From an uncultured Gemmatimonadota bacterium (GTDB lineage Bacteria; Gemmatimonadota; Gemmatimonadetes; Palauibacterales; KS3-K002), in assembly GCA_964345885.1 (NCBI GenBank), contig CAYFSW010000033.1, positions 45,584-109,583 of the forward strand: a DNA stretch of 64,000 bases, written 5' to 3'. Shown here one piece after another: positions 1,518 to 57,290 of this stretch. The notes beneath the pieces are model-generated. The model was not told where the DNA came from. It did no database searches and worked only from the letters and a program-made list of their open reading frames with translations. How positions within the stretch are numbered: the first letter of the stretch is position 1; each line of letters starts with the position of its first letter. A program made the translations under genes and the position numbers.

Positions 1518-3569
1518 TCAGCCTAGCGCAACAAAGAACGGCGCCAGCACCAGGCTCACCACACTCATCAGCTTGATCAGGATGTTCATCGACGGGCCCG
1601 ACGTATCTTTGAACGGGTCGCCGACCGTATCCCCGACTACCGCTGCCTTGTGCGGATCCGAGCCTTTACCACCCATGTTGCCCGCCTCGATCCACTTCTT
1701 GGCGTTGTCCCAGGCACCACCGGCATTGGCCATGTAAAGCGCCAGCAAGACGCCGGCCAACGTCGCACCGGCCAGCAGACCGCCCAGCGCTTCTACGCCC
1801 AGGAACGAGCCTACCAGAACTGGCGCGATTATCGCCGTCAAGCCGGGGACGATCATCTCGCGTAGCGCCGCACGGGTCGAGATGTCCACGCAGCGTGCGC
1901 TATCCGGCTTGGCCTCGCCGTCCATGAGACCGGGGATCTCCTTGAACTGGCGGCGCACCTCGGTCACCATCCCCGAGGCGGCGCGCCCGACCGCAGTCAT
2001 AGTCAGCGCCGCGATGACAAAGGGCAACGTGCCGCCGATCAAGAGCCCGATGACCACGACCGGGCTCACCAGGTTGATTCCGGTTTCCTGAAGGCCCACC
2101 GCGGACGAATAGGCGCTGAACAGCGCCAGCGCGGTGAGGGCGGCGGAGCCGATGGCAAAACCTTTGCCGATGGCCGCCGTGGTGTTGCCGATGGCATCGA
2201 GGCTATCGGTGATGCTGCGTACCGCTGGACCCAAGCCGCTCATCTCGCTGATTCCGCCGGCGTTGTCGGCGACCGGACCGTAAGCGTCCACCGACATCGT
2301 CACGCCGACCGTGGCCAGCATGCCGACGGCCGCGATACCGATCCCGTACAGTCCAGCAAAATGATACGCCAGCCAGATGGCGGCGCAGATGAGCAGCACC
2401 GGCACGGCGGTCGAGATCATCCCGACGGCCTGGCCGGCGATGATGTTGGTGGCCGCACCAGTCTCTGACGCCTGGGCGATCTTCCTGACCGGCTTGGCCG
2501 CCGTGTAGTACTCGGTGGACAGACCGATGAATATCCCGACCAACGAGCCGCCGAACATCGCCCAGAACGGCCCCATCGTGCCGAAGTCCGGATTGCCCGC
2601 GAACACGTCGAGCTCGGCAGTCAACCACCAGGCGGCGATCCAGAAGAGGATCGCTGCGATGTAGGTGCTATTCCGGAGCGCCGCTGCGGGATTCATCTTT
2701 TCCATCAGCTTCAGGGAGAAGACCCCGATGACGCTGGCGATCAAGCCGAACCCGACGAAGAGGACCGGCAGAGTGACCGCCGCCAGACGGTGATCGGTCA
2801 TGATCTGTACCGACGTCGCGCCGATCGCGATCGTGGCGATGATCGACCCGACATACGACTCGAATATGTCGGCGCCCATTCCGGCCACGTCGCCGACGTT
2901 GTCGCCCACGTTATCGGCGATCGTCGCCGGGTTACGAGGGTCGTCTTCGGGGATCCCCGCCTCGACCTTGCCGACCAGGTCGGCTCCTACATCGGCCGCC
3001 TTTGTGTAGATACCGCCACCGACACGAGCGAAAAGAGCGATCGAGCTCGCGCCCATTGCGAACCCCGCGATCACTTCGCTGAACAGCTTGAAGGACGAGT
3101 CGTCGGTCAGGCCGCCCGCGAAAATGAACAGTACAACGCCGATGCCGAGTAGGCCCAGGCTGCCCACCGACAGACCCATCACGGCACCACCGTTGAAGGC
3201 TACGCGTAACGCCTTACCTTGACCCGTGTCGCGCGCCGCCTCCGAGGTGCGGACATTGGCCTCCGTCGCGGCGTTCATACCGAAAAACCCGGCCATCAGC
3301 GAACAAAGAGCGCCGCCGACGTACGCCGCCGACGTCGGGAGCGAGCCGAGCGCCACGTACAACAGGAACGCGACGACGACGATGAACGGGATGAGCACCG
3401 AGTACTCGCGCTTCAGAAACGTCCTAGCGCCTTCCCGGATCCGCGATGCCAGCTCGGCCATCAACTCCGTGCCGACGGGCTGTCGTTTCAGGTAAACGTA
3501 GATAAGCGCGGCAACCACCAGCCCCAAGAGCCCCAGGGGCGCCGAAAACGTCACCGCAACGTTCGTCAT
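1518..3569 (-). CDS. hppA: Membrane-bound pyrophosphatase, K+-dependent, probably Na+-translocating
   Basis: [87 protein letters not shown]; many TM segments. Confidence 0.96.
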
Positions 3570-3594: not shown

Positions 3595-3693
3595 TCAACA
3601 TCCAACACCCAAAATCCGATACTTCCGAGGCTGGATATTGGGTCTCGATCGTTGACGCTTGACAAACAGGAATGGTTGGGTGTTGGGTGTTGA
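3595..3693. repeat. Element B: palindromic heptamer-unit repeat (CCAACAC/T family)
   Basis: tcaacat ccaacac ccaaaat ccgatac (3595-3622) pairs with atggttgg gtgttgg gtgttga (3672-3693), abutting the pth stop codon. Confidence 0.75.
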
Positions 3694-23855: not shown

Positions 23856-23970
23856 GGGAGTCGGGGAATACCGCATTTTCTTGGGACTCGGGGAATCGTG
23901 GAATCTGGGAATACGGGATCCGCGATCGGCTAATCCGTGGATCCGTGGAGTCCGTGGAATCGGGGAAGTC
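23856..23970. repeat. Element D: 8/9-mer tandem repeat (GGGAATCG / ATCCGTGGA family)
   Basis: gggactcg gggaatcg tggaatct gggaatac gggatccg ... tccgtggagtccgtggaatcgggga (23942-23966). Confidence 0.8.
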
Positions 23971-24091: not shown

Positions 24092-26905
24092 ATGAATCGG
24101 CTACCGACAGCCTTCCTCATTCTCGTCGCCGCCACGCCCGTCGCCGCCCAGCAGCCGGCGGTCGACCTGAGTAGCCCCTTGCCCGTCGATTCGGCGGTCA
24201 CGCTGGGCACGCTGCCCAACGGCCTGCGCTACTACATCCGCGAGAACCCGGAGCCCCAGGAGCGGGCGGAGCTGCGTCTGGTGGTCAAGGCCGGATCGGT
24301 GCTGGAGGACGACGATCAGCAGGGCCTGGCGCATTTCGTCGAGCACATGGCGTTCAACGGGACCGAGCACTTCGAGAAGCAGGAGCTGGTCGACTACCTA
24401 GAGGGGATCGGCATGCGCTTCGGGCCCGAGCTGAACGCCTACACCAGCTTCGACGAGACCGTCTACAGGCTGACGGTGCCGACGGACAGCGCGGAGCTGG
24501 TCGCCACCGCCTTCCAGGTCCTCGAGGATTGGGCGCACGGCCTCCTCTTCGACCACGAGGAGATCGACAAGGAGCGCGGCATCATCGTCGAGGAGTGGCG
24601 GCTGGGTCGTGGTGCCGGCGCCAGGATCCGCGACCAGCAACTCCCCGTCCTCTTTCAGGGCTCGCGCTACGCCGAGCGCCTGCCGATCGGGGAGCCGGAA
24701 GTCATCCAGAGCTTCGAGTACGAGACGCTGAAGCGCTTCTATCGCGACTGGTATCGGCCCGACCTGATGGCGGTGATCGCCGTCGGCGACTTCGAAACGG
24801 CGACGATCGAGGAACTGGTCCACCGGCACTTCGCCGGAATACCCATGCCCGACATCGCGCCGCAGCGACCCATCTATCCCGTTCCCGATCATGAGGAGAC
24901 GCTGTCCGCCATCGCCACCGACCCCGAGGCCACGTTCAACTCGGTGGCCGTCTACTGGAAGCAGCCGCCTCGCGAAGTAGGCACACTCGGCGCCTACAGG
25001 CAATCGATTGTCGAGGCGCTCTACAACCGCATGCTCAGCTTCCGCCTCTTCGAGCTGACCCAGGAGGCCGATCCCCCGTTCATCGGCGCCGGCTCCAGCC
25101 AGGGCCGCTTCATCGGCCCCAAGGAGGTCTACATCCTCGCCGCCGGCGTACAGGAGAACGGTCACGAGCGCGCCCTTGAGGTCCTGCTCACGGAAGCCCA
25201 GCGCGTGGCGCGCCACGGCTTCGCCGACACCGAGCTCGAGCGAGAAAAGCGCGAGCTGCTGCGGCACCTGCAGCAGGCTTACGATGAGCGGGAGAAGACG
25301 GAATCTTCGCGTTACGCCTCGGAGTACGTCCGTGCCTTCCTATACAACGAGCCGATACCGGGCATCGCTTACGAGTACGAGACACACCAGCAGCTGCTCC
25401 CCGCTGTCGCGCTGGTGGAGGTGAACCGGCTGGCCCGCGAGTGGATCACCGAGAACAACCGGGTGATTCTGGTGGACGGCCCGGAAAAGGAGGGGGTCGC
25501 CGTCCCAACCGAGGACGAGCTACTGGCCGTCTTCGCCGCCGTCGAGTCGGCGGGGATCGAGGCGTACGTCGACGCCGCCACCGAGGCGCCGCTCGTGCCC
25601 ATCCTGCCTGAGCCCGCCGAGATCATCGAAATCGAGGAGATCGAGGAGCTCGGCGTCCAGCGCTGGACCCTGGCCAACGGGGTGCGGGTGCTGCTCAAGC
25701 CCACCGACTTCAAGGACGACGAGATCCTCTTCAACGGCTGGAGCCCCGGCGGCACCTCGCTGGCCTCCGATGAGAACTACGTCGCCGCGATGACCGCTTC
25801 AGCGGTCATGATGCTCGCGGGCATCGGCGAGTTCAGCCTCATCGACCTGCAGAAGAAACTGGCCGGGACCGCGGTACGGGTCTCGCCGTCCATCGGCTCG
25901 CTGTTCGAGACGATCGGCGGCAGCGCCTCGCCCAGTGACGTGGAGACGATGTTCCAGCTCACCTACCTGTACTTCACCGCACCGCGTCGCGACGGCGCCG
26001 CCTTTCAATCGCTCAAGTCGCGCATGCAGGCCTCCCTGGCGAATCGGGACGCCGACCCGGGGTCGGCGTTCAGCGACACCCTAAACGTCACGCTCACACA
26101 GCACCATTTCCGCGCACGGCCGCCGACCCTCGAGCTGTACGATGAGATGGATCTGGACGCCTCCTACGAGTTCTACCGGGACCGTTTCGTCGACGCGGGC
26201 GACTTCTTCTTCGTCTTCGTGGGCAACTTCGATCCCGACAGCTTGAAGCCGTTGATCCAGACCTACATCGGCGGCCTGCCGACCACCGGCCGTGAAGAGA
26301 CGTGGCGCGACGAAGGGATCCGCTACCCCAGCGGCGTCATCGAGAAGACCGTCTACAAGGGGATCGAGCCGAAGAGCCAGACGCGGATCGTCTTCACCGG
26401 ACCGTTCGAGTGGACGCGCGAGAACCGCTACGCGATCCGCGCGCTGGGTGACGTGCTCCGCATCCGGCTCCGCGAGGTCCTGCGCGAAGACATGGGCGGC
26501 ACCTACGGCGTGAGCGCTGGCGGTAGCGGCAGCCGCGAGCCGGTACCGGACTACCGGTTCAGCATCGCGTTCGGCACCGCGCCCGAACGGCTCGAGCGGA
26601 TGGTCGATGCCGTCTTCCTGCAAGTCGACAGCCTGCAGACGGTCGGGCCGTCGCAGGAAGACGTTGACAAAGTGAAGGAGATGCAACGCCGCGAGTACGA
26701 GACCGACCTGCGCGAGAACAGCTTTTGGCTCGGTCAGCTGATCGCCGCCGAACGCTACGCCGTCGACCCGCGCAACATTCTCAACTACGGGGAGATGATC
26801 GACGGGCTGACCGCGGAGATGGTGAGGGAGGCGGCGCTGCGCTACCTACGCACTGATAACTACGTGCAAGTGTCGCTGTTTCCGGAGGAAGACAGTGGTC
26901 AGTAG
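24092..26905 (+). CDS. Exported M16 (insulinase/PqqL-like) zinc peptidase
   Basis: Signal peptide MNRLPTAFLILVAATPVAAQQ, GTLPNGLRYYI, GLAHFVEHMAFNGT (HxxEH), NAYTSFDETVY, second half LANGVRVLLKPTDFK; SD GGAG before ATG 24092. Confidence 0.93.
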   Translation: MNRLPTAFLILVAATPVAAQQPAVDLSSPLPVDSAVTLGTLPNGLRYYIRENPEPQERAELRLVVKAGSVLEDDDQQGLAHFVEHMAFNGTEHFEKQELVDYLEGIGMRFGPELNAYTSFDETVYRLTVPTDSAELVATAFQVLEDWAHGLLFDHEEIDKERGIIVEEWRLGRGAGARIRDQQLPVLFQGSRYAERLPIGEPEVIQSFEYETLKRFYRDWYRPDLMAVIAVGDFETATIEELVHRHFAGIPMPDIAPQRPIYPVPDHEETLSAIATDPEATFNSVAVYWKQPPREVGTLGAYRQSIVEALYNRMLSFRLFELTQEADPPFIGAGSSQGRFIGPKEVYILAAGVQENGHERALEVLLTEAQRVARHGFADTELEREKRELLRHLQQAYDEREKTESSRYASEYVRAFLYNEPIPGIAYEYETHQQLLPAVALVEVNRLAREWITENNRVILVDGPEKEGVAVPTEDELLAVFAAVESAGIEAYVDAATEAPLVPILPEPAEIIEIEEIEELGVQRWTLANGVRVLLKPTDFKDDEILFNGWSPGGTSLASDENYVAAMTASAVMMLAGIGEFSLIDLQKKLAGTAVRVSPSIGSLFETIGGSASPSDVETMFQLTYLYFTAPRRDGAAFQSLKSRMQASLANRDADPGSAFSDTLNVTLTQHHFRARPPTLELYDEMDLDASYEFYRDRFVDAGDFFFVFVGNFDPDSLKPLIQTYIGGLPTTGREETWRDEGIRYPSGVIEKTVYKGIEPKSQTRIVFTGPFEWTRENRYAIRALGDVLRIRLREVLREDMGGTYGVSAGGSGSREPVPDYRFSIAFGTAPERLERMVDAVFLQVDSLQTVGPSQEDVDKVKEMQRREYETDLRENSFWLGQLIAAERYAVDPRNILNYGEMIDGLTAEMVREAALRYLRTDNYVQVSLFPEEDSGQ

Positions 26906-27020
26906 GCGGTGTGCGGTATGCGGTGGACGGTAGACGTGTCACAGACTGCGCGTAGGCTACGTAGTGTTTACTGTTGGTGCGACAGAGGTTAACCCACCAC
27001 CGACTACCGGTCACTGGTCT
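26893..27020. repeat. Element E: palindromic heptamer-unit repeat (CGGTAGG family)
   Basis: cagtggt cagtagg cggtgtg cggtatg cggtgga cggtaga (from 26893, overlapping the M16 stop); right arm ccaccaccg actaccg gtcactg (about 26994-27017). Confidence 0.8.
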
Positions 27021-35504: not shown

Positions 35505-35620
35505 TCTCCTATTCCCCGATCCCCCAATTCCCCGATCCCACGGATTCCACGGCTTCCACGGTTTCTTGAGCTCCCCAATCCCAACTCCCCAACTCCAGAA
35601 CCCCCGGACTCCCCACTTCC
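35505..35620. repeat. Element G: 8/9-mer tandem repeat (reverse complement of the D/N family)
   Basis: tccccgatcccacggattccacggc (35529-35553) plus ctccccaa/ctccagaa/cccccgga units up to the glpK stop. Confidence 0.8.
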
Positions 35621-40830: not shown

Positions 40831-42108
40831 CTAGAACTTCCGTATCAGCATATTGTCGCGTGGCAGGCGAGCGAGCTCCAATCCTCTCAACACGTGACCG
40901 ACGGCGGCGACGTAACGGTCCGACCGTTGCTCCACATCGTCGTAAAGCGTGAGGGAGCGGTTGCTGAAGAAGTACTCCTCCGAGCGAATATTCAGCTCAG
41001 TGACCCCAAGCGGTCCGCCGGGCTCCATGGACAGAACCAGCTCGCCGGCGGCGCGCAGCGGCTCGCCGTGGGCGAGCAGCGCGTGCGTTACGGCGGCGCC
41101 GCCCATGTCGAAGCCGGACATCGAAGTGCGTGCGACCCGGATAGCGCCATAGCGATCGGCCACGTAGATGTAGCGCCCCGGCCGCAGGCTCGAGAGCTTA
41201 GCCGGCGCGAGGACGGGGTACCCGAGCCAGCTGCCACCCGACGTTTCGTAATCGCGGTAGCGGTGTTGGAGTGCCACCTCGGTGTCCTTGTTGACGAAGA
41301 GCACGGGGTCTGCCTGCTCCTCGACCCAGCCGCTGAGCGCCGGGCCGGGCACGAATCCGTGGACGTCACGGACGGCGTCGCCGAGGCTAAAGGTGCGGTT
41401 CTCGTCGAGCAGCCGGGTGTACCCCTCGCGGTCGCGGATCACCGGTTCCGGCGGCTGGTCGTAGAGCTCGTACGTGGGGTCGAGACCGTACTCGATCGCA
41501 CGCGGCGGCCCCTCCGTGGCGAGCCCGCTATCCGTCATCGCCAGGTACGTGGCTACGGCAGCGGAGTATCGCGCCACGGGGCCCTCGACCAGTTCGGTTA
41601 TCCCGGCGACCTGGGCGCGCTGCGCCCACAGCAGCCAGCGGTGCTCCCGGACTGTGAAGACCTGCACGAATACTCGCTCGCCGACGATCGTGCCCTCGAG
41701 GAACCGACCGGCATAGCCGGGGGGCAGCTCGTGGGCCAGCGTATCCGAAGGCTGCAACTCCTCCAGGGCCACGCCGCCAGTGGGGAACCAGAGGCGGCGG
41801 CTCACGCCGGCGGAGCTGCGTGGGTCAGGAGCGATGATCCGCAGCGTCGAGCGAACCAGGTCGGTGGTATCGGGCAGGTCGGCGCCAAGGTCGATCGGCC
41901 CCAAAACGAAGAAACCAGAATCGGTAGGCAGGTGGCGGTTGAGTGCGGCCACCGCCGCCAGTTGCCAACTGGACGGCCCCTCGTAGCCAACGGCGTTGGG
42001 GTCCCAAGTTACCTGGGCCAGGGCTCCGAGCGAGGCGAAGAAAACGGCGACTGCTCCAACGATCATCGCCGGCGATGGCGATGGCGATGGCGATGAGGCT
42101 CTGTTCAC
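40831..42108 (-). CDS. Hypothetical exported protein with an IQM/'SGHY'-like C-terminal domain
   Basis: Signal-like MIVGAVAVFFASLGALAQ (ATG 42066); C-terminal YIYVAD..G.IRV...HALLAHGEPLRAAGEL...NIRSEEY. Confidence 0.65.
   Translation of the reverse strand: MNRASSPSPSPSPAMIVGAVAVFFASLGALAQVTWDPNAVGYEGPSSWQLAAVAALNRHLPTDSGFFVLGPIDLGADLPDTTDLVRSTLRIIAPDPRSSAGVSRRLWFPTGGVALEELQPSDTLAHELPPGYAGRFLEGTIVGERVFVQVFTVREHRWLLWAQRAQVAGITELVEGPVARYSAAVATYLAMTDSGLATEGPPRAIEYGLDPTYELYDQPPEPVIRDREGYTRLLDENRTFSLGDAVRDVHGFVPGPALSGWVEEQADPVLFVNKDTEVALQHRYRDYETSGGSWLGYPVLAPAKLSSLRPGRYIYVADRYGAIRVARTSMSGFDMGGAAVTHALLAHGEPLRAAGELVLSMEPGGPLGVTELNIRSEEYFFSNRSLTLYDDVEQRSDRYVAAVGHVLRGLELARLPRDNMLIRKF
42071..42096. repeat. 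Hexamer tandem repeat (GGCGAT)n
   Basis: ggcgatggcgatggcgatggcgatga; reverse complement of the element H unit. Confidence 0.75.
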
Positions 42109-42112
42109 GGGC

Positions 42113-42553
42113 TCAATCCCTCTCGATGATCAGTGTCACGGGTCCGTCGTTTATTAGGTCGACCTCCATCAGGGCACCGAACGATCCCGTGGCAACCGGG
42201 ATAGTCCCCTGCCGCAGAATGTCGACGAAACGGTCGTATAGCCGTTCCGCCTCATCGGGCTCGGCTGCGTCGACGAAGGAGGGGCGACGCCCTTTCCGGA
42301 CATCACCGTACAGAGTGAACTGTGACACGACGAGCAGCTCGCCGCCGATCTCGTCGATCGGCAAGTTCATCTTCCCCTCCCCATCGGGGAAAAGGCGCAG
42401 CCCGCGTATCTTGTCGGCCATCCAGCGCAGCTGCTCATCGGAGTCCCCATGCCGGAAGCCGACCAGCAGCAGGAAGCCGCGTCCTATGCCGCCTAAGGTT
42501 TCTCCGTCGACACGCACTGCTGCCCGCGCGACACGCTGTAGGACAACTCGCAT
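42113..42553 (-). CDS. dtd: D-aminoacyl-tRNA deacylase
   Basis: MRVVLQRV, LRLFPDGEGKMN, VSQFTLYGD, GRRPSF, NDGPVT. Confidence 0.97.
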   Translation of the reverse strand: MRVVLQRVARAAVRVDGETLGGIGRGFLLLVGFRHGDSDEQLRWMADKIRGLRLFPDGEGKMNLPIDEIGGELLVVSQFTLYGDVRKGRRPSFVDAAEPDEAERLYDRFVDILRQGTIPVATGSFGALMEVDLINDGPVTLIIERD

Positions 42554-42630
42554 GGGGGTGGAAGTTGGGCGGGTGCCCGGGCTTCGCGCAACCGCAGTGG
42601 CGGGTTGGGTCGGGAGGCACTGTGGGAGAC

Positions 42631-42697
42631 GGTACGTCGGTAATGAGGCGACAATCAGGTTACCGCCTTACCGACGCACCGACGCACCGGATACCGG
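42631..42697. repeat. Element I: octamer-unit hairpin (ACCGACGC family)
   Basis: ggtacgtcggtaa (42631-42643) pairs with ttaccgacgcacc (42668-42680); continues gacgcaccggataccgg. Confidence 0.8.
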
Positions 42698-42700
42698 CCG

Positions 42701-45100
42701 CTACTCGGACTGCAGAACCGCTACCGGGTCGACCCGCACCGCGCGCCAGACCGGGAGCAGGCAGGCGACGGCGGCGACGGCCGTAAACAGGACGCTGACA
42801 GCCACGAAGGTCGCGGGGTCGGTTGGCGCAACCCGAAAGAGCATCCGCTCCAGCAGTCGCGAGGCGCCGACCGCGCCGGTCAACCCGACGCCGATCCCGA
42901 CGGCTACCAGCAGCAGGCCGCTCTTCAGTACCATCTCCGTGATGTCGCCCGGCCCGGCACCGAGTGCCATGCGCAAACCGATTTCGCGGTGCCGCTCCAC
43001 GACGGATTGCGCGAGCACCCCGTAGAGGCCGACGGCCGCGAGGAGCACGGCGATGCCGGCGAAGATCGCCAAGGCGACGGTCCGAACCCGCCGCATGAGC
43101 TGAGAACGCGATAGGAGCCCATCCATCGTAACCAGCTCGGGATCTGGGACCTCCGGTTCCAAGCTCCAGATCGCGGCCCGCAGCGCTCCGGCTAACGACT
43201 CCGGCCTAGCGGAGGCCCGGACCACCAGCCCCATGTCGAAGTAGGGGATCTGGGCGTAGGAACCGTACATGGCGGGGAACCGCTCATCGCCCAGGCCACC
43301 GCTGACGACATCACCCACGACACCGACGACTTCAAACGTGGTCTCGTAGTCGAGCACGACCTGCCGGCCGATGGGATCGCGACCTCTGAGGATCGAGTCG
43401 ACGAACGCCTGGTTCACGACGAAAACCAGCGGCGAGCCGATGCCGTCCGTCGGTTCGATGTCGCGACCCGCGTACAGAGGAACGCCCATCGCCTCGAAGT
43501 AGCCCGGCCGTACGGCTCTGTAGTACGCCGATCGTGCATCGACCAGACCGACCGGTGGGTCCTCCGCGTCGTAGACTGGCTCGTTGTTACCCGGCTGCCT
43601 GATCGGGATCTGGCTGATCAGGCCGACGCCCTCCACCCCGGGGACCGCCTCGAGCCGTCGGGTCAGATCGGTGTAGAACTGGACCCGCCGCTCGGACTCG
43701 CCGTACGTGTCCCGCGGTAGCTGGATCTCCCCGGTAATCAGATTCGTCGCCGCGAAACCGAGATCGACGCTCATCAGGCTCGCCAGACTCCGGATCAGCA
43801 ATCCGGCCCCGATGAGCAGCACGATCGAGACCGCCACCTGAAAGACGACGAGCCCGCGACGGAACCGAACGCCGCCACGGTCGGTGGTCCGAACGCCCGA
43901 CCTGAGATCCTGGGCCAGGTCACCGCGCGACGCTTGCAGAGCCGGGAAGGTGCCGAAGGCTAAACCCGTCAGCAGCGACACGCACACCACGAAGGACAGG
44001 ACCTTGGTGGAAAGGCCCCGCTCCCAGATTGCCGAACCCCCCACCGCCGTAAGCTGCAACAATAGCGGCTGCAGCCACTCGGCAAGCAGGATTCCCAGCG
44101 CACCGGCTACGCCGGCCAGCAGCAGACTCTCGGTAAGCAGCTGCCGTGCGATGCGGGCGCCCGAGGCGCCGAGCGCACCTCGCACGGAGAGCTCGGTGCG
44201 CCGCGCCGAGCCGCGAGCCAGAAGCAGGCTCGCCACATTACCGCAGGCGATCAGCAGGACCAGCCCCACCGCGACCTGGAGCATGAACAGGCTCTCGCGG
44301 TAGTTCTCAGTCCAGGCCTCCTGCAGGTTCGTGAGCTTGAGGCCGATACCCCGGTTGGTATCAGGGTACTGCGCAGCCAGCTGCGCGGAGATGACGTCTA
44401 CCTCGCTCTGTGCCTGAGCCAGGGACACGCCCGGCGCCAGCCGACCGACCACACTCCAGTTGGTCTTGCCACGCTCGGCGATGAATGGGTCGTCGCGCCG
44501 CATCGGGACCCAGAGGTCCACATCGAACCTGAAATGGAACCCCCTCGGCATCACGCCGACGATCTCCGCCGTGAACCCGTCGACCCGCACCGTCCGGCCG
44601 ACCACATCCGTCTCCCCACCCAACTGCTGCTGCCAGTAACCGTAGCTGACGATCGCCACGAGCGGCGCGGTCTGCAGCTCATCCTCAGCACCGAAGCCGC
44701 GACCGATCCGGGGAGCGACCCGCAGCGCCGGGAACAGGTCATGGCTGACGACGAGGCCAGGCACCCGCTCCGGTCTTTCGACGCCGCTGACCACTACGGA
44801 ACGCGGGAAACCGGAAAAGGCGGCGAGCTGCTCGAACGACGTGGTGCGGTCCCGGAAGTCCCAGTAGTCGAGGGCTGAGACCCACGCACGCTCCCTACCT
44901 TCGAACGTCGATTGGCCGTACACCAGCCGCTCGGCCTCCGCGTAGGGCAGCGACCGGAGCAAAGCCGCGTCGATCACGCTGAACACGGCCACGTTGGCCC
45001 CGATCCCGATCGTCAGAACGACTACGATCACGGCGCTCAGCCCACTCGCCTTGATCAGCGAGCGGCCGCCGTGTCGGATGTCCTGCCAAATACCCACCAT
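42701..45100 (-). CDS. Orphan duplicated ABC-type permease (ADOP, MacB/FtsX-like), no adjacent ATPase
   Basis: LTIGIGANVAVFSVIDAALLRSLPY, VGLVLLIACGNVASLLLARG, R.ALGA...RQLLTES, GLYGVLA..V..R.REIGLRMALGA, RVDPVAVL. Confidence 0.92.
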   Translation of the reverse strand: MVGIWQDIRHGGRSLIKASGLSAVIVVVLTIGIGANVAVFSVIDAALLRSLPYAEAERLVYGQSTFEGRERAWVSALDYWDFRDRTTSFEQLAAFSGFPRSVVVSGVERPERVPGLVVSHDLFPALRVAPRIGRGFGAEDELQTAPLVAIVSYGYWQQQLGGETDVVGRTVRVDGFTAEIVGVMPRGFHFRFDVDLWVPMRRDDPFIAERGKTNWSVVGRLAPGVSLAQAQSEVDVISAQLAAQYPDTNRGIGLKLTNLQEAWTENYRESLFMLQVAVGLVLLIACGNVASLLLARGSARRTELSVRGALGASGARIARQLLTESLLLAGVAGALGILLAEWLQPLLLQLTAVGGSAIWERGLSTKVLSFVVCVSLLTGLAFGTFPALQASRGDLAQDLRSGVRTTDRGGVRFRRGLVVFQVAVSIVLLIGAGLLIRSLASLMSVDLGFAATNLITGEIQLPRDTYGESERRVQFYTDLTRRLEAVPGVEGVGLISQIPIRQPGNNEPVYDAEDPPVGLVDARSAYYRAVRPGYFEAMGVPLYAGRDIEPTDGIGSPLVFVVNQAFVDSILRGRDPIGRQVVLDYETTFEVVGVVGDVVSGGLGDERFPAMYGSYAQIPYFDMGLVVRASARPESLAGALRAAIWSLEPEVPDPELVTMDGLLSRSQLMRRVRTVALAIFAGIAVLLAAVGLYGVLAQSVVERHREIGLRMALGAGPGDITEMVLKSGLLLVAVGIGVGLTGAVGASRLLERMLFRVAPTDPATFVAVSVLFTAVAAVACLLPVWRAVRVDPVAVLQSE

Positions 45101-45263
45101 CGATCAAACCTCCTCCCCGGGCATGAGCCGGCCGGGGCATCTCAGGCTGAGGCAAGCGCCATGCCGACGCGGATGGCTTGCCGACAGGCAGTATAAGGGT
45201 CAACCGCGAATGCAGTGTCCACCTCTGGGAAGGTCGGTGTCAGAAGCGAACAGTCGGCAAGCC

Positions 45264-45363
45264 GGTACGTAGGTGCCTCAGTGCGTCGGTTGCCGCCCGA
45301 TTACCGACGCACCGACGTACCGGCGTAACGGTTACCGGCGCACCGATCCACCGGCGCACCGGC
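45264..45363. repeat. Element J: octamer-unit hairpin (ACCGACGC family)
   Basis: gtgcgtcggt (45281-45290) pairs with accgacgcac (45303-45312); further accggcgc units to the glmS stop. Confidence 0.8.
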
Positions 45364-47193
45364 TCACTCAACCGTGACGCTCTTGGCGAGGTTGCGGGGT
45401 TGATCGACGTGGCAGCCGCGGAGCACGGCTATGTGGTAGGCGAGCAGCTGTAGCGGGATGACCGTGAGTACCGGCTGCAGCATTTCGTGGGTCGTCGGGA
45501 CCGTCACGATATGGTCGGCCAGACGGTCCAGCTCGCCGTTCCCCTCGGTGGTGATGGCGATGACCCGGCCACCCCGCGCTTTCACCTCTTCGACGTTCGA
45601 GAGGATCTTCTGATAGACGCGCCCCTGCGGCGCGATGAAGACAACGGGCATGTTCTCATCGATCAAGGCTATAGGGCCGTGCTTCATCTCGGCCGCCGGG
45701 TAGCCCTCGGCGTGGATGTAACTAATCTCCTTCAGCTTGAGAGCACCCTCCAACGCGACGGGGAAGTTGTAACCGCGTCCCAGGTAGAGGAAGTTCTTGT
45801 TCAGGTGGTAGCGCTCGGCCATCCCACGGATCTCTTCGTTGCGAGCGAGGATCTGGCCGATCTGATCGGGCAGCTGCTGGAGCGCCTTCGCGACGGTGGC
45901 CTGCTCCTGAAGCGGCTCCGATTGGGTGCTCAGGTAGAGGGTGATCAGGGCCAGGGCGACGACCTGGGAGGTGAACGCCTTGGTCGAGGCGACACCGATC
46001 TCGGGGCCCGCGTGGATGTATACGCCGCAGTCGGCGGCGCGGGCGATGCTCGAGCCGACGACGTTGACGATGCTGACGACTCTGGCACCCTTTTCCTTCG
46101 CCTCACGGATCGCGGCCAACGTGTCAGCGGTTTCGCCGGATTGGGAGAGGGCGATGACCAGAGATCGCTCGTCGAGCACCGGGTCACGATAACGGAACTC
46201 GGAGGCGTACTCGGTCTCAACCGGTATGCGAGCGAACTCCTCCAGCATGTACTCGCCGATCAGGGCGGCATGCCATGAAGTGCCGCAGGCGGTGAGTACG
46301 ATCCTGTTGTATTTGGCAATATCCTGGGAGGGCAGGCAGCTCGACAGGCCGCCCAGACGCGCGGTCCCCTGCTCGACGAGCAGCCGGCCGCGCATCGTGT
46401 CACGCACCGAATCGGGCTGCTCGAAGATTTCCTTTAGCATGTAGTGGGGGAAGCCGCCGCGTTCGATCGTCCCCAGGTCCCACGAGACGCGACTCACCTC
46501 CTTGGTGAGCGGGCTGCCCCTCAGGTCGGACGTCCGGTAACCCTCTCGATCCAACACGGCCAGCTCGCCGTCGTCCAGGTAGACCACGTCGCGGGTGTGC
46601 TCGACTACGGCCGCCGCATCGGAGGCGACGAAGAGAGAATGATCACCGATCCCCAGTAACAGTGGCGATCCGTTCCGCGCCGCGACCAGCTTCTCCGGGT
46701 CGCGGCTCGATACTACGGCGATGCCGTAAGTCCCCTCGACCTGCTGGAGCGCCGCGGCAACCGCCTCTTCCAGGTTGTCGTCGTAAGCTTCATCGATGAG
46801 GTGCGCCAGCACCTCGGTGTCCGTTTCGCTGCGCAGCTCGTGGCCCAGCTCTTCGAGTTTCTGACGGAGCACCCCGGCGTTTTCGATGATGCCGTTATGG
46901 ACGACGGCGATGTCATCCGCACCATTGTGATGGGGGTGGGCGTTGGTCGCAGTGGGTGCGCCGTGCGTGGCCCAGCGCGTGTGAGCGATCCCCAAGGTGC
47001 CCTGCGGTAGGTCCCCGCCGATCGCCTGCTCTAGATCGACTATCTTGCCCGCCATCTTGCGGGTATCGAGGCTGCCGTTGGCACAGACCGTGACGCCCGC
47101 CGAGTCGTAGCCCCGGTACTCGAGCCGTCGTAGCCCCTCGAGGAGTAGCGGCGCCGCCTCAGCCGTACCTATGTACCCGACGATCCCGCACAT
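45364..47193 (-). CDS. glmS: Glutamine--fructose-6-phosphate transaminase (isomerizing)
   Basis: MCGIVGY, EYRGYDSAG, HTRWATHG, SETDTEV, SQSGETADT, GPEIGVASTKAF, EGALKLKEISY, DQPRNLAKSVTVE. Confidence 0.98.
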   Translation of the reverse strand: MCGIVGYIGTAEAAPLLLEGLRRLEYRGYDSAGVTVCANGSLDTRKMAGKIVDLEQAIGGDLPQGTLGIAHTRWATHGAPTATNAHPHHNGADDIAVVHNGIIENAGVLRQKLEELGHELRSETDTEVLAHLIDEAYDDNLEEAVAAALQQVEGTYGIAVVSSRDPEKLVAARNGSPLLLGIGDHSLFVASDAAAVVEHTRDVVYLDDGELAVLDREGYRTSDLRGSPLTKEVSRVSWDLGTIERGGFPHYMLKEIFEQPDSVRDTMRGRLLVEQGTARLGGLSSCLPSQDIAKYNRIVLTACGTSWHAALIGEYMLEEFARIPVETEYASEFRYRDPVLDERSLVIALSQSGETADTLAAIREAKEKGARVVSIVNVVGSSIARAADCGVYIHAGPEIGVASTKAFTSQVVALALITLYLSTQSEPLQEQATVAKALQQLPDQIGQILARNEEIRGMAERYHLNKNFLYLGRGYNFPVALEGALKLKEISYIHAEGYPAAEMKHGPIALIDENMPVVFIAPQGRVYQKILSNVEEVKARGGRVIAITTEGNGELDRLADHIVTVPTTHEMLQPVLTVIPLQLLAYHIAVLRGCHVDQPRNLAKSVTVE

Positions 47194-47210: not shown

Positions 47211-48599
47211 TTAGTTGCCGGCCCGAGCCACTATGGCCCCGGCCGCGTCGACCAGCTCCCGCACTGCGCCCCGGCTATCCTGGGGCCCCTCGGCGATAAC
47301 CCGCAAGATTGGTTCCGTGCCTGAAGCCCTGCAGTGAAGCCACATCTGGCGTTGCGGCCAGCGCAGGTGGAGTCCGTCCCGGCGGTCAGTCACCGCGCCG
47401 GGAAAGGCGCTCTCCAGCTCGCCGGCCAGCGCATCGAGCTCGATGCGGCCCCGTGGGAAGCGATTCTTGACGATAACGAATTGTGGATAATCCGCCACAA
47501 TCGCGCTCAGAGTCGTCTTCATCTCCGCCAGCAGCTGTAGGATCAGGGCCACTGCCAGCGGAGCGTCGCGGGTCAGGTGAAGGGCCGGCAGAATGACGCC
47601 CCCATTGCCTTCCCCGCCCACCACGGCGCCGGCCTCCCGCATCGCCGCGGCCACGTGGGCTTCACCCACCGGCGATTGCCGGTACTCCGCGCCCGCTTCC
47701 CTGCACACCGTTTCGACGATCTGACTGGTCGATAGGTTGGCCACGACAGGGCCGCGCCGGTACGAGAGGACCAGCTTGGCGGCAAGCGCCAGTGTATAGT
47801 CCTCGCCGATGGCGCGGCCCGATCCGTCGACCAGCGCCAGCCGGTCCACGTCCGGGTCCACCGCCATCCCCAGATCAGCACTCTCCTGCGAGACTCGCTC
47901 GCATAACGCGCCCATGTTCGCCGGGATGGGCTCCGGTTCCCGAGTGAATCGACCGTCGGGCTCGAGCTCGATGCCGACGACCTCGACCCCCAGCCGCTCG
48001 AGCAACGCCGGCAGGATTACACCACCGGCGCCCCTCGCGCAGTCGAGGACGATCTTGAGGCCGCGGGCGGCTATCAGCACCGGATCGACGAGATCGAGCC
48101 CAATGACGCGCTCGATGTGCCGTTCGACCGCACCGGGCGCCTCCGCCGCCTCGCCCGGTTCCCCCGAAGCGGCCGGCGGTGGTGCAGCCCCACGAAGCCC
48201 GGCCAGGAACTCCATCCCCTGTTCGGGGGTGAGGAATGCTCCCTCCGGACTCGCCAGCTTCAGCGCGTTCCACTCCTTCGGGTTATGGCTGGCCGTCACA
48301 ACGACGCCCCCGGCCAGCCCCAGCTCCTCGATGGCAAGCAGCGCGGTGGGCGTCGGGACCAGCCCCAGGTCACTCACCCGGCAGCCGGCCGTCTGCAGGG
48401 CCGCGGTCGCCACCTTGACGAATTCGGGCCCGCTGGGCCGCGAATCGCGGGCGATAGCCAGGTGGTCTCCCCAGCCCTGGCCGCGGACGAACGCCCCGAA
48501 CGCCGCGGCGAAACCGCTGACCACATCCGGGGTCAGGTCGATCCCGACTCGGCCGCGGATACCCGACACGCTGACGATCAGGGTCTCCGGAAATTCCAT
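47211..48599 (-). CDS. glmM: Phosphoglucosamine mutase / alpha-D-phosphohexomutase
   Basis: SVSGIRG, VTASHNP, DPDVDR, GGEGNGG, RASGTEP; adjacent to glmS. Confidence 0.85.
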   Translation of the reverse strand: MEFPETLIVSVSGIRGRVGIDLTPDVVSGFAAAFGAFVRGQGWGDHLAIARDSRPSGPEFVKVATAALQTAGCRVSDLGLVPTPTALLAIEELGLAGGVVVTASHNPKEWNALKLASPEGAFLTPEQGMEFLAGLRGAAPPPAASGEPGEAAEAPGAVERHIERVIGLDLVDPVLIAARGLKIVLDCARGAGGVILPALLERLGVEVVGIELEPDGRFTREPEPIPANMGALCERVSQESADLGMAVDPDVDRLALVDGSGRAIGEDYTLALAAKLVLSYRRGPVVANLSTSQIVETVCREAGAEYRQSPVGEAHVAAAMREAGAVVGGEGNGGVILPALHLTRDAPLAVALILQLLAEMKTTLSAIVADYPQFVIVKNRFPRGRIELDALAGELESAFPGAVTDRRDGLHLRWPQRQMWLHCRASGTEPILRVIAEGPQDSRGAVRELVDAAGAIVARAGN

Positions 48600-48739
48600 G
48601 GTTCGTGTAATTAAGCCGAGGTTCCCCACTACTCAAGGCAGGTGTCGCTGGACGGGGCCGCGCCCGGCAACTAGACTGTCTACTCCAATTCCCAGTCATG
48701 CTTGGACCAACACGATAACTGATATCGACGGAGACTTCG

Positions 48740-49891
48740 GTGGCTGACCAAGAGCGACGTTTCGGCACTCGGGCTGTCCACGCCGGCCAGGGACCCGACC
48801 CCACGACCGGCGCGATAATGACGCCTATCTACCAGACGTCTACCTATGCCCAAGAAGGGATCGGCGTCCACAAGGGCTTCGAGTACGCCCGCGTCTCGAA
48901 CCCAACCCGCACGGCTCTGGAACTGAACGTCGCGGCCCTGGAGGGCGCCGCGCACGGTGCCGCCTTTTCGTCCGGCGTCGCCGCCATAGAGGCGGTGACC
49001 AAGCTCCGTTCCGCCGGCGATCACATCATCTGTGGCTCCAACGTCTACGGCGGGACCGACCGCTTGTTCCGCCAGGTCCTGACTAGGCTGGGGCTGGAGT
49101 TTTCGTTCGTCGATACACGCGAGCCGCAGGCTATCGAGGCGGCGATCAAGGAGGAGACGCGGCTGATCCTGATCGAAACGCCGACCAATCCGCTCATGCA
49201 CATAACCGATATCGCGGCCGCCGCCGAGATCGCCCACGCGCGAGGCGCCTGGCTGGTCGTCGATAACACGTTCGCGACGCCCTACTTCCAGCGCCCACTC
49301 ACGCTGGGCGCTGACGCCGTCGTTCACTCGAGCACCAAGTACTTAAACGGGCACAGCGACGTCGTCGGCGGCCTGATCCTCACGTCGGACGATGAGCTGA
49401 TCGAGGGGCTGCGCTTCATGCAAAAGTCGGCCGGCGCCGTGCCCGGCCCCATGGACTGCTGGCTCGTCCTGCGCGGGACCAAGACGCTGCACGTGCGCAT
49501 GCAGGCACACGACCGGAACGGTCGGCAGATCGCCGAGTGGCTCGAAGGCGACGACAGGGTCCAGCAGGTCTTCTTCGCCGGCCTGCCGTCGCACCCGCAG
49601 CACGAGCTGGCGAAACGCCAGATGAACGGCTTCGGCGGCATGATCTCGCTCGAGCTCGGGAGCCGCGAGCGTGCCGACGCCTTCTGCCGCGCGACCCGCG
49701 TCTTTACGCTGGCAGAGAGCTTGGGCGGCGTCGAGAGCCTGATATCCGTTCCCGCCGCCATGACCCACGGCGCAGTGCCGAAGCAACTGCGCGAAGAGAT
49801 GGGGATCACCGAGGGGCTGGTCAGGCTTTCGGTGGGGATTGAGGATGTGGAGGACCCGATCGAGGACCTAGATCAGGCGTTGCCACGGTAG
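48740..49891 (+). CDS. Cystathionine gamma-synthase/gamma-lyase family PLP enzyme
   Basis: TPIYQTSTY, YARVSNPTR, FSSG, ETPTNP, VDNTFATP, HSSTKYLNGHSD, LAESLGGVESL, RLSVGIE. Confidence 0.93.
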   Translation: MADQERRFGTRAVHAGQGPDPTTGAIMTPIYQTSTYAQEGIGVHKGFEYARVSNPTRTALELNVAALEGAAHGAAFSSGVAAIEAVTKLRSAGDHIICGSNVYGGTDRLFRQVLTRLGLEFSFVDTREPQAIEAAIKEETRLILIETPTNPLMHITDIAAAAEIAHARGAWLVVDNTFATPYFQRPLTLGADAVVHSSTKYLNGHSDVVGGLILTSDDELIEGLRFMQKSAGAVPGPMDCWLVLRGTKTLHVRMQAHDRNGRQIAEWLEGDDRVQQVFFAGLPSHPQHELAKRQMNGFGGMISLELGSRERADAFCRATRVFTLAESLGGVESLISVPAAMTHGAVPKQLREEMGITEGLVRLSVGIEDVEDPIEDLDQALPR

Positions 49892-49989
49892 CCAGTGGGC
49901 GGTAGACAGTAGGCGGTGGGCGGTAATTCCCAGTTCGGATCTCGCGATTGACCACTACCGCCTACTGCCGCACCGTCTACCGCCTACCG
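49886..49989. repeat. Element K: palindromic heptamer-unit repeat (CGGTAGG family)
   Basis: cggtagc cagtggg cggtaga cagtagg cggtggg cggtaat pairs with ctaccgcctactgccgcaccgtctaccgcctaccg. Confidence 0.85.
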
Positions 49990-50043
49990 AAACCACGGAA
50001 CAAGAGCAAGAAAAAGTCCAGAACGAATGACAGGTCATATACG

Positions 50044-51333
50044 ATGAGAATCTTGGTTGTAGGATCCGGCGGAAGAGAACACACGCTCATCTGGCAGCTG
50101 AAGCGCGAGCAGCCGGACGCGCAGATCTACGCGGCGCCGGGCAACGGCGGCACGAAGGCGCTGGCTGAGTCGGTGCCGCTCAAGCCGGGTGAAATCGAGG
50201 AACTGGCCGACTTCGCCGACTCGCGTGAGATCGAGTTGACAGTGGTGGGCCCCGAGGCGCCGCTGGTTGAAGGGATCGTCGACTGCTTCGAAGAGCGAGG
50301 CCTTGAGATCTTCGGACCCTCGCAGGCGGCCGCCAAGATCGAGGGCTCGAAGGCTTTCGCCAAGTCGCTGATGGAAGAGGCGGGTGTACCCACCGCCGCG
50401 CACCGAACGCTGCTCGATTTCGAAGAGACCGAGCGCTACATCCGCGAGCGCGGCGCTCCTATCGTCGTCAAGGCCTCAGGCCTGGCCGCCGGCAAGGGCG
50501 CTATCGTCTGCCAGACCGTGGACGACGCCGTGGCAGCCGCCCGCTCGATGATGGTCGACAAGAGCTTCGGCGATGCGGGAACGACGGTCGTCGTCGAGGA
50601 CTGCCTGGTCGGCGAAGAACTATCGATCCTCTACCTCACCGACGGCGAGCACGCTCTACCGCTCATCCCCTCGCAGGACCACAAGCCCATCGGCGAAGGC
50701 GATACCGGACTCAACACCGGCGGCATGGGCGCCTACGCACCGGTCTCCATCGCCGACGCTGCGCTGGTCGGCCGGGTCACCGATACGATCGTCATGCCGA
50801 CGCTGGGCCGGATGCGCGCCGAGGACCGCACCTTCCGCGGGGTCCTCTACTGCGGCCTGATGATCGTCGATGGCGACCCCTACCTCATCGAGTTCAACTG
50901 TCGGTTCGGCGACCCGGAGACACAGGCTATCCTGCCGCTGCTGGAGAGCTCGCTGCTCGATGCCTTCCTGAAGGTGGCGCGCGGCGAATCGCTGGCCGGG
51001 GGCGACTTCCGCTTCAGCCGCCGGGCGGCAGTTTGCACAGTGCTCGCCTCGAAGGGCTATCCCGGCAAGTACGAGAAGGGCAAGCCGATCACAATACCGG
51101 ACCCGTTAACCGACGACCCCGACATGATCGTGTTGCACGCCGGGACGCGCCGCGACACCGAGGGCAAGCTGGTGACCGACGGCGGCCGTGTGCTCGGCGT
51201 CGTCGGCCTCGGCGACGACGTGCGCGGCGCCGCCGCGAAGTCGAGGGAGGCCGCTACCGCCATCAAGTTCAGCGGCAAGTACTTCCGCGGCGACATCGGC
51301 TACCGGGAGATCGAGCGCCAGGGCGTCAGTTAG
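50044..51333 (+). CDS. purD: Phosphoribosylamine--glycine ligase
   Basis: MRILVVGSGGREH, VVGPEAPL, EGSKAFAK, KASGLAAGKG, QDHK, NTGGMGAY, EFNCRFGDPE, GGRVL. Confidence 0.97.
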   Translation: MRILVVGSGGREHTLIWQLKREQPDAQIYAAPGNGGTKALAESVPLKPGEIEELADFADSREIELTVVGPEAPLVEGIVDCFEERGLEIFGPSQAAAKIEGSKAFAKSLMEEAGVPTAAHRTLLDFEETERYIRERGAPIVVKASGLAAGKGAIVCQTVDDAVAAARSMMVDKSFGDAGTTVVVEDCLVGEELSILYLTDGEHALPLIPSQDHKPIGEGDTGLNTGGMGAYAPVSIADAALVGRVTDTIVMPTLGRMRAEDRTFRGVLYCGLMIVDGDPYLIEFNCRFGDPETQAILPLLESSLLDAFLKVARGESLAGGDFRFSRRAAVCTVLASKGYPGKYEKGKPITIPDPLTDDPDMIVLHAGTRRDTEGKLVTDGGRVLGVVGLGDDVRGAAAKSREAATAIKFSGKYFRGDIGYREIERQGVS

Positions 51334-52226: not shown

Positions 52227-52712
52227 TCAGCCGCGGGTCGTGAGGTCGATGAGTCGTGCGGACGGTTCGAGCTGACGTTCGAGCGTGAGGATGGCGGCCG
52301 TCACTGGATTACCGAACCGCCGATGGCCAGCGCTGCCCGGGTTCACGACGAGTGGGCCGGCGGTCTTCTCGATGAGCGGTTGGTGGGTGTGGCCGTAAAC
52401 GACGGCTGAGAATCCGGGGTAGGCCTGGACGAGGTCGCGCACCTTCGGCGAGCCCCACTGGTGGCCGTGGACCACGACGATTCGGTGGCCGAGCCGCTCG
52501 AGTTTCACCGCCTCGCCCAGTTGTTGCCGCAACTCCCACCCATCCACGTTGCCACAGACGGCATGCACCGGTGCTATGACTTCGAGCTCGGTGAGGATGG
52601 AGGGATCGCCAACGTCCCCCGCGTGCAGAATCTCATCGACCCCCTCGAACGCGGCGTACACCTCGTTGCGAAGTAGTCCGTGAGTGTCGGCTATGAGGCC
52701 GATGCGGATCAT
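52227..52712 (-). CDS. Metallophosphoesterase (YfcE/MJ0936 family)
   Basis: IADTHG, ILHAGD, VCGNVD, VHGH, YGHTH, NPGS. Confidence 0.92.
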   Translation of the reverse strand: MIRIGLIADTHGLLRNEVYAAFEGVDEILHAGDVGDPSILTELEVIAPVHAVCGNVDGWELRQQLGEAVKLERLGHRIVVVHGHQWGSPKVRDLVQAYPGFSAVVYGHTHQPLIEKTAGPLVVNPGSAGHRRFGNPVTAAILTLERQLEPSARLIDLTTRG

Positions 52713-52793
52713 CAGTATGCGGTTTGCAGTTTGCGGTTCGCGGTGTGGTAGGTGTGCACCTCAGACCTACGGCACACCGCACACCGCATACCG
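52713..52793. repeat. Element L: palindromic heptamer-unit repeat (CGGTRTG family)
   Basis: cagtatg cggtttg cagtttg cggttcg cggtgtg gtaggt pairs with acctac ggcacaccg cacaccg cataccg. Confidence 0.85.
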
Positions 52794-52843
52794 GGACGCC
52801 TCAGCCGCAGAGTCTACCTCACCACGCCGGCCCTGCCAACCCG

Positions 52844-57147: not shown

Positions 57148-57290
57148 ATGGGAGTTCGGGATTCAGGGATTCGGGGTTCTGGGAGCCGAGGATCCGAGGC
57201 ATCCGTGGAATCCGTGGAATCGGGGACTCGGGGAGTCCCTCCCGGAATCCCGCATCCCACGGACCCCACGGATTCCACGGATGCTCGGTC
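57148..57290. repeat. Element N: 8/9-mer repeat with a perfect 19-bp inverted repeat
   Basis: gcatccgtggaatccgtgg (57199-57217) and ccacggattccacggatgc (57266-57284), preceded by gggattca/gggattcg/gggagccg units. Confidence 0.9.

Follow-up and report, generated by a model that had tools for sequence, protein, structure and literature searches.

The 64,000-nt stretch analysed here, hereafter the window, derives from an uncultured Gemmatimonadota bacterium (contig CAYFSW010000033.1) and carries, between glmS and dtd, a gene encoding an ADOP permease that is bracketed by two 60-nt hairpins. Gene order in relatives indicates that this gene is a real insertion, common to a genus-level clade (dtd 86-95% identical). 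The two hairpins are members of a lineage-specific family of unit-built palindromes located within a few bases of stop codons. ADOP stands for "Acidobacterial duplicated orphan permease" (TIGR03434). Like the rest of this family, the permease is full-length (TIGR03434, 860.6 bits versus a cut-off of 622.3), contains the MacB_PCD and FtsX domains of Pfam twice each and has no adjacent ATPase gene. There is nothing unusual in the protein itself: the point of interest is the relocation of its gene as a promoter-plus-open reading frame (ORF) module. The locus includes the following features.

47211-48629, minus strand: glmM.
45364-47193, minus strand: glmS (glutamine-fructose-6-phosphate transaminase; TIGR01135, 822.9 bits), upstream of the insertion.
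45323-45362, minus strand: hairpin B2, an extra small hairpin made of CGGTGCGC-type units, which begins 1 nt past the glmS stop and has a 12-bp stem.
45264-45323, minus strand: hairpin B, the right-hand repeat, an inverted repeat made of CGGT units (-39 kcal/mol, z-score -5.4).
45101-45263, minus strand: ADOP leader, the 5' portion of the inserted segment, delimited by alignment with the leaders of L210, L203, L204 and L211.
45151-45165, minus strand: -24/-12-like element GGCATGGCGCTTGCC in the ADOP leader, also found in the paralogues L216 and L217.
42701-45100, minus strand: the inserted gene, encoding an ADOP-family duplicated FtsX/MacB-type permease of 799 amino acids (TIGR03434; Pfam MacB_PCD and FtsX).
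42631-42690, minus strand: hairpin A, the left-hand repeat, at the position of the ancestral glmS hairpin (fold of -33.7 kcal/mol on the minus strand).
42554-42630, minus strand: conserved dtd leader (…GTTGCGCGAAGCCCGGGCACCCGCCCAACTTCCACCCCC-ATG), which aligns with those of L124, L203, L204, L211 and L215.
42113-42553, minus strand: dtd (D-aminoacyl-tRNA deacylase; TIGR00256, 180 bits), downstream of the insertion.

The L-numbers denote loci in relatives: L203 is the occupied locus of CP070812.1, L215 the empty locus of CP070815.1 and L210 the ADOP locus of CP070815.1. The genes glmM, glmS, ADOP and dtd are all on the minus strand and are transcribed in that order. Therefore, the hairpins sit directly 3' of the glmS (45364) and ADOP (42701) stops. 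The names that the initial annotation had given to ADOP, glmS and dtd agree with the matches to TIGR03434, TIGR01135 and TIGR00256.

A scan of metagenomes with the dtd protein yielded 80 loci, whose gene order was then established by tblastn with the proteins of the window. In about 25 metagenome loci, which encode dtd proteins with 58-68% identity (tblastn), glmM-glmS-dtd(-maf) is uninterrupted. Three closer relatives are also empty: L124 (dtd 86% and glmS 92% identical), L209 (dtd 87.7%) and L215 (dtd 82%); the spacer of the empty site of L209 is masked with Ns. Therefore, the adjacency of glmS and dtd is the ancestral state and, as the initial annotation had suggested, the permease gene splits a conserved pair. 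The occupied arrangement glmS-ADOP-dtd was found in L001 and L002 (99.7-99.97% nucleotide identity), L203 (dtd 95%), L207 (94%), L204 to L206 (92%), L208 (88.5%) and L211 to L214 (dtd 86%, ADOP 87%). Both spacers hold a hairpin in every occupied genome where the spacer in question was read.

A single hairpin had been predicted for an empty allele, and this is what the empty alleles display. In L124, the spacer consists of the glmS stop, ACC, one 130-nt hairpin built of CGGT units, CTCCCGCAGCGCC… and the conserved dtd leader. The left arm of this hairpin comprises eight CGGT units and is followed by a 29-nt non-repetitive loop and by a right arm made of complements. The L215 junction carries a one-armed array of CGGT/CAGT units at the same place. 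The end of the L124 hairpin, ACCGG|CTCCCGCAGCGCC, is also the end of hairpin A in L204, L208 and L211. Moreover, the hairpin located between ADOP and dtd in L211 and L208 starts with the same units as that of L124, and its loop, compared without gaps, is identical to the L124 loop at 30 of 39 positions in L211 and 28 of 39 in L208. Since they share an end, first units and a loop, hairpin A, next to dtd, is orthologous to the one that resides at the empty site. Therefore, the module entered between the glmS stop and the resident hairpin. In L204 to L206, the L124-type loop is present as its reverse complement (positions 5452-5525 of L204 versus 7790-7920 of L124 and 8395-8503 of L211). This inversion is a flip-flop of the loop inside the palindrome and implies that the arms recombine or pair in vivo.

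The dtd leader directly follows hairpin A here and the only hairpin in L124. It aligns in occupied and empty alleles alike and is conserved down to 82% dtd identity. It probably contains the promoter and the ribosome-binding region of dtd; with a promoter of its own, dtd would be transcribed independently of glmS or ADOP. In another relative (L123, positions 54-857; dtd 83%), the gene located before dtd is a DUF4097 gene instead of glmS, the spacer contains an ordinary GC hairpin and the contig stops before showing whether glmS is present at a greater distance. The junction may have undergone a second change in this relative, independently of the first.

The paired 60-nt elements described in the initial annotation (42631-42690 and 45264-45323) proved correct in their coordinates, direct orientation and folding, as well as in their nearly identical ends (10 matches over the first 11 nt and 22 over the final 23). 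They share a 17-mer, TTACCGACGCACCGACG, which occurs exactly twice in the 64 kb versus 0.05 times expected from shuffled sequences. Both fold as long imperfect stems, with energies of -26.5 and -33.7 kcal/mol (plus and minus strand) for hairpin A and -39 kcal/mol for hairpin B (z-scores of -2.7 to -5.4). The hairpins start 1-10 nt past the stop of the gene transcribed before them, and glmS is followed by two of them in tandem (45362-45323, then 45323-45264). Tandem Repeats Finder (TRF) detects a period of 8 at 42670-42689 and 45303-45367. The sequence common to A and B consists of two copies of an 8-nt unit, ACCGACGC (ACCGACGY), in one arm and of its complement in the other. Since the arms repeat one octamer and its complement, the likeness between A and B amounts to about one unit of information and not to 33 independent bases. 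Furthermore, the right arm of hairpin B, ACCGACGCACTGA, is common to the orthologous hairpins of L211 and L204.

Similar elements are found throughout the window. TRF detects short-period (7-9 nt) arrays in about 12 intergenic spacers, and these arrays fold as long unit-built palindromes, for instance at 1391-1496, 3595-3693, 23883-23958, 35514-35615, 49886-49989, 52713-52793 and 57150-57282. In the family to which A and B belong, the 5' arm is made of tandem 7-8-nt CGGTNNN(N) units and the 3' arm of an array of their complements. A scan of the whole window for periodic arrays (at least three CGGT or ACCG words with a spacing of 6-9 nt) found six arrays at five loci versus 0.54 arrays expected, all of them within, or at the edge of, the non-coding 8.7% of the window. 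Three of these five loci flank genes other than ADOP.

26895-26975, plus strand: CGGT-unit array after a gene encoding an M16 peptidase.
49886-49995, plus strand: CGGT-unit hairpin after a gene encoding a Cys/Met pyridoxal phosphate (PLP) enzyme and before purD, used as a non-ADOP control.
52705-52800, minus strand: CGGT-unit hairpin between a gene encoding a methyl-accepting chemotaxis protein (MCP) and a metallophosphoesterase gene.

At all five loci (26895, 42631, 45264, 49886 and 52705), which involve both DNA strands, the CGGT arm is the 5' arm when read in the sense of the upstream gene. Hence, the orientation of the hairpins follows the gene and not the strand of the chromosome. Unit-built hairpins are carried by about 10-11 of the 18 spacers of at least 56 nt (all but two at least 60 nt) that hold the 3' end of a gene. 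Since over half of these longer spacers have one, a gene located between two long spacers is often "bracketed". The longest ORF of purD (49948-50044 region) is too long by about 32 codons at its 5' end, since its GARS_N domain starts at residue 33; the hairpin at 49886-49989 is therefore fully intergenic. A scan of genome contigs with ACCGRCGYACCGRCGYACCGG gave, among the matches listed, unrelated high-GC genomes, mostly Streptomyces and other actinomycetes, and a single match in Gemmatimonadales (L031), located inside an ORF.

The inserted segment consists of a 165-nt leader and the ORF. Outside the occupied clade, the best homologue of the permease is P0130 (74% identity), encoded by CP070815.1 (L210), a genome whose glmS-dtd site is empty. 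The neighbours of its gene encode an alpha/beta-hydrolase and a DUF418 protein; provided that the record is circular, the distance to glmS-dtd is about 55 kb. About 165 nt of the ADOP leader align with the leader of L210, at this different locus, and with those of the orthologues L203, L204 and L211. At its two edges, the homology with L210 breaks off about 10 nt beyond the end of hairpin B and 0-6 nt beyond the stop codon, respectively. No CGGT-unit hairpin was found on either side of the L210 locus. Similarly, two paralogues with 54-55% identity (L216 and L217) lack bracketing repeats and are followed either by ordinary GC-rich stems or by nothing of the kind. Therefore, the hairpin brackets are not a property of ADOP genes. 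Besides its copy at glmS-dtd, CP070812.1 encodes only 54-55% paralogues among the best 120 matches, so the gene seems to have been relocated rather than added.

The aligned part of the leader includes GGCAY-N5-CTTGCC about 55 nt before the ATG. This element, GGCATGGCGCTTGCC, resembles a -24/-12 (GG-N10-GC) sigma-54 promoter. The orthologues, the 74% homologue and the two 54-55% paralogues have all kept it, in the versions GGGCACGCCCCTTGCCC and GGGCACGCCCTTTGCCC upstream of the paralogues; both paralogues also share CCCCGTCCGCAATTGGACA further upstream. A search of the ADOP leader with the sigma-54 consensus TGGCAY-N5-TTGCW gave no match with one mismatch allowed. The leader carries CGGCAT-N5-TTGCC, which has two mismatches to this consensus, so the assignment as a promoter is tentative. 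The presence of similar elements upstream of the paralogues suggests that ADOP paralogues may form a sigma-54 regulon.

The ADOP orthologues of the occupied alleles are 85-89% identical. In a protein tree based on 2,035 columns, the ingroup is nearly a polytomy, in which L215 and L209 pair with a support of 99/100. Grouping all occupied alleles in one clade is compatible with the data according to the approximately unbiased (AU) test (p = 0.19). Hence, judging by divergence and topology, the insertion is old and a single gain is probably sufficient to explain its distribution. A possible excision in L124, which nesting in the occupied clade would imply, was also considered: the topologies disagree, and the monophyly of the occupied alleles stands unrejected (p-AU 0.19).

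The hairpins change much faster than the genes that they follow. In two comparisons (runs X2 and X3), contigs from relatives align through ADOP, dtd and glmS, and both hairpin stretches are replaced by stretches of similar length; in strains at 99.7% identity, the hairpins are identical. The orthologous hairpins of the window, L203, L204 and L211 have only scattered unit-level strings in common. L214 (115-180) and L211 (5708-5840) encode identical ADOP proteins, and hairpin B is about 70 nt of CGGT units shorter in L214; array indels are therefore very fast. The same turnover is found at the control site between the Cys/Met enzyme gene and purD. At this site, L211 (1040-1192) keeps the loop found in the window with different arms, and L203 (650-775) has instead a hairpin made of GATGGC hexamers: the position is kept and the unit family is entirely different. 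In the window, the local alignment score between A and B is 20, inside the range found between unrelated family members (13-30), and the string ACCGACGCACCG also occurs in the hairpin of L211 at the unrelated Cys/Met-purD site. The insertion dates back to 11-15% protein divergence and the hairpins are rewritten much faster; the present likeness of A and B is therefore not a preserved scar.

We propose that the ancestral glmS-dtd spacer contained one unit-built hairpin followed by the dtd leader. A self-contained module of 2.57 kb, made of the 165-nt leader with its -24/-12-like promoter element and of the ADOP ORF, and ending 0-6 nt past the stop, inserted between the glmS stop and the resident hairpin before the genus-level clade radiated. 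Hairpin A is the resident hairpin and hairpin B a second member of the family, which would have been either copied from the resident one at or after the insertion or acquired later. Both have since been rebuilt repeatedly by gain, loss and replacement of units, and the match at 22 of 23 nt reflects a shared type of unit. Taken as a whole, this account, with its family hairpins, its old module insertion beside a resident palindrome and its later rebuilding, is in our opinion moderately probable. A structure may be required at this position, so that hairpins are retained there or formed anew. The fixed order of their arms relative to transcription and their place between a stop and a promoter-bearing leader suggest that they could mark transcript ends or act as insulators, separating glmS, the ADOP promoter and the dtd promoter.

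Several observations weigh against this account or against the role suggested for the hairpins. A scan of 41900-45700 found no terminator-like site: GC-rich stems are present and the U-tract is absent, for which reason intrinsic (Rho-independent) terminators were rejected as an identity for the hairpins. Furthermore, a comparison of sense and antisense RNA stability for 13 hairpins revealed no consistent bias (Wilcoxon p = 0.31); selection on the hairpins at the RNA level is therefore without support. In smaller data sets, the empty allele L124 is placed inside the occupied group with a support of 54-81%, which would imply a precise loss. Lastly, the first units of hairpin B after the glmS stop resemble those of the empty-site hairpin (ACACGGTAGACGGTAGACGGTG in L205 versus ACCCGGTAGACGGTAGACGGTG in L124), and a genuine duplication of the hairpin at insertion therefore has to be weighed.

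The closest elements described so far are the heptameric G-rich intergenic repeats of Xanthomonas (GGGAATC) and Nostoc (GGGGAYT) (Rehm et al. 2015, PLoS One, PMC4692102). These repeats have units of 7-9 nt, are almost always intergenic and lie much nearer to the upstream ORF (mean of 28 nt in Xanthomonas); their arrays are frequently paired convergently and could thus form stem-loops or cruciforms (PMC4692102). The hairpins of the window resemble them in unit length (7-9 nt), in their intergenic location near the upstream ORF and in their convergent arrays folding as stem-loops. However, their CGGTNNN(N) units have no G3 tracts (CGGTGCGT/CGGTAGA, without GGG). Therefore, a quadruplex is not expected and the family is a variant rather than a strict member of the Xanthomonas/Nostoc type. 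The units of the window are also far more labile, being replaced wholesale between close relatives. Moreover, repeat-bearing spacers of Xanthomonas have fewer insertions than controls (PMC4692102), whereas a gene insertion adjoins the repeat here.

Repetitive extragenic palindromes (REPs), including mosaic elements (BIMEs) and REP doublets (REPINs) associated with RAYT transposases, are another point of comparison (Nunvar 2010, PMC2817692; Bertels and Rainey 2011, PMC3116915). REPs are 20-40 nt long, conserved in sequence, numerous in their genome and linked to a RAYT gene. Palindromic repeats are known as preferred insertion targets, REPs being targets of insertion sequences (IS) (Tobes and Pareja 2006, PMC1525189). 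Like REPs, the hairpins of the window are lineage-specific extragenic palindromes located downstream of genes. Unlike REPs, they have variable units, and the exact 17-mer is present in only two copies in 64 kb; in addition, the DNA inserted here is not an IS. Miniature inverted-repeat transposable elements were considered as well and rejected, because the length and sequence of the hairpins vary freely between orthologous sites (34-134 nt) and no target-site duplication is apparent.

The initial annotation had interpreted the locus differently, the ADOP gene and its hairpin being a cassette that would excise or integrate at hairpins by attC-like or REP/RAYT HUH-like processes, thereby explaining the expansion of ADOP genes. 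This model needs no transposase in cis, and the locus does resemble an integron cassette: a single gene lies between two imperfect palindromes of variable sequence, same orientation and similar ends, and the empty site has a single hairpin. However, neither strand of either hairpin carries GTTRRRY/RYYYAAC core sites, even with 5-8 nt of flank included, and no integrase, transposase or HUH domain was found among the genes called within about 8 kb in three genomes (L001, L203 and L211). There is no cassette array either, and the gene carries its own 165-nt leader with a promoter-like element, so that capture by an attC-like or REP/HUH process is not sustained. REP/REPIN-RAYT systems and integron attC sites are thus probably analogies only. 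The proposal that hairpin flanks are a general route for the spread of ADOP genes is not supported, since the nearest outside homologue and two paralogues have ordinary flanks. A specific link between hairpin and ADOP is likewise unsupported, as hairpins of the same family and unit type lie beside unrelated housekeeping genes (M16 peptidase, Cys/Met PLP enzyme and MCP/phosphoesterase). Furthermore, the gain is ancient and probably single, with vertical co-divergence, which does not support ongoing mobility, and the present resemblance of the hairpins is therefore not a preserved target-site duplication. Contigs from the source sample (X1, Logan) include no circle or deletion joint at the hairpins, although this is a weak test for rare circles; in another set of Logan contigs (X4), a weak dtd-to-glmS joint has a 26-nt side. 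Overall, we regard a mobile cassette as highly implausible. A recent gene conversion or template switching between hairpins 2.6 kb apart, which would have made A and B alike independently of the insertion and of their common family, has slightly more in its favour and still appears very unlikely. The exact 17-mer found only at A and B agrees with such an exchange, as do a genome-specific 15-mer, GTAGCCGGTGGCCGG, shared by A and B in L203 and a 14-mer shared by them in L211. However, in L204 the stretch common to A and B is only 7 nt long, the A-B scores within genomes (20, 16, 8 and 20) do not exceed those obtained between genomes for the family, and ACCGACGCACCG also occurs at an unrelated site of L211. 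Concerted evolution of A and B within genomes was rejected on the same scores.

It is also conceivable that the resident palindrome (about 100 nt) was copied when the module entered, A and B having begun as identical target-site copies. This could have occurred if an extruded cruciform was nicked at its base with a stagger as long as the palindrome and the gaps were then filled in, or if replication stalled at the hairpin, continued on the ADOP locus as template and came back upstream of the hairpin, as in microhomology-mediated break-induced replication (MMBIR). Such a duplication would explain why there is one hairpin at the empty site and two at occupied sites, and why each of the two adjoins the outer flank expected for it (the glmS stop followed by ACC at one edge, CTCCCGCAGCGCC at the other). 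The absence of CGGT hairpins on both sides of the homologous leader and ORF in L210 suggests that the gene arrived without hairpin A or B. Moreover, hairpin B of L205 and hairpin A of L211 both start with the unit order of L124, and the trinucleotide after the hairpin is CTT for B in the window, L204 and L211 and CTC for A in L204, L208 and L211. However, this likeness is at the level of units only: the unrelated hairpin at 49886 scores 15-19 against the L124 and B hairpins, compared with 19-22. The non-repetitive loop is common to the empty-site hairpin and A only, and arrays abut stops throughout the window, so that the junctions have perhaps been rewritten since the insertion. We thus consider a duplication at insertion doubtful, and a single event gives no means to judge whether palindrome duplication recurs. 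The broader proposal that unit-built palindromes are transposase-free sites of gene capture, at which a stall or a cruciform cut leads to the entry of a module from about 55 kb away with a duplication of about 100 nt, is less probable again and, in our view, unlikely.

An old insertion beside a resident palindrome that has been rebuilt since, the account that we prefer, makes this locus a clean and dated case of relocation, in which a promoter-plus-ORF module entered a conserved run of housekeeping genes at the very place of a repeat palindrome; occupied and empty alleles are both available in public data. The rapid rebuilding of hairpins whose position and orientation are fixed argues for a positional function or for a formation tied to gene ends. 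The more exciting reading, i.e. hairpin-recombination cassettes spreading ADOP permeases, is removed, and the question is narrowed to whether the palindrome was duplicated by the insertion event. If capture at palindromes were true and general, it would shape gene order in Gemmatimonadota, and hppA would be a second case in the window. This gene (1518-3569), which encodes an H+-pyrophosphatase (PF03030, 881 bits), is flanked by two hairpins made of heptamer units (1391-1497 and 3595-3693) and could represent a second insertion at a palindrome.

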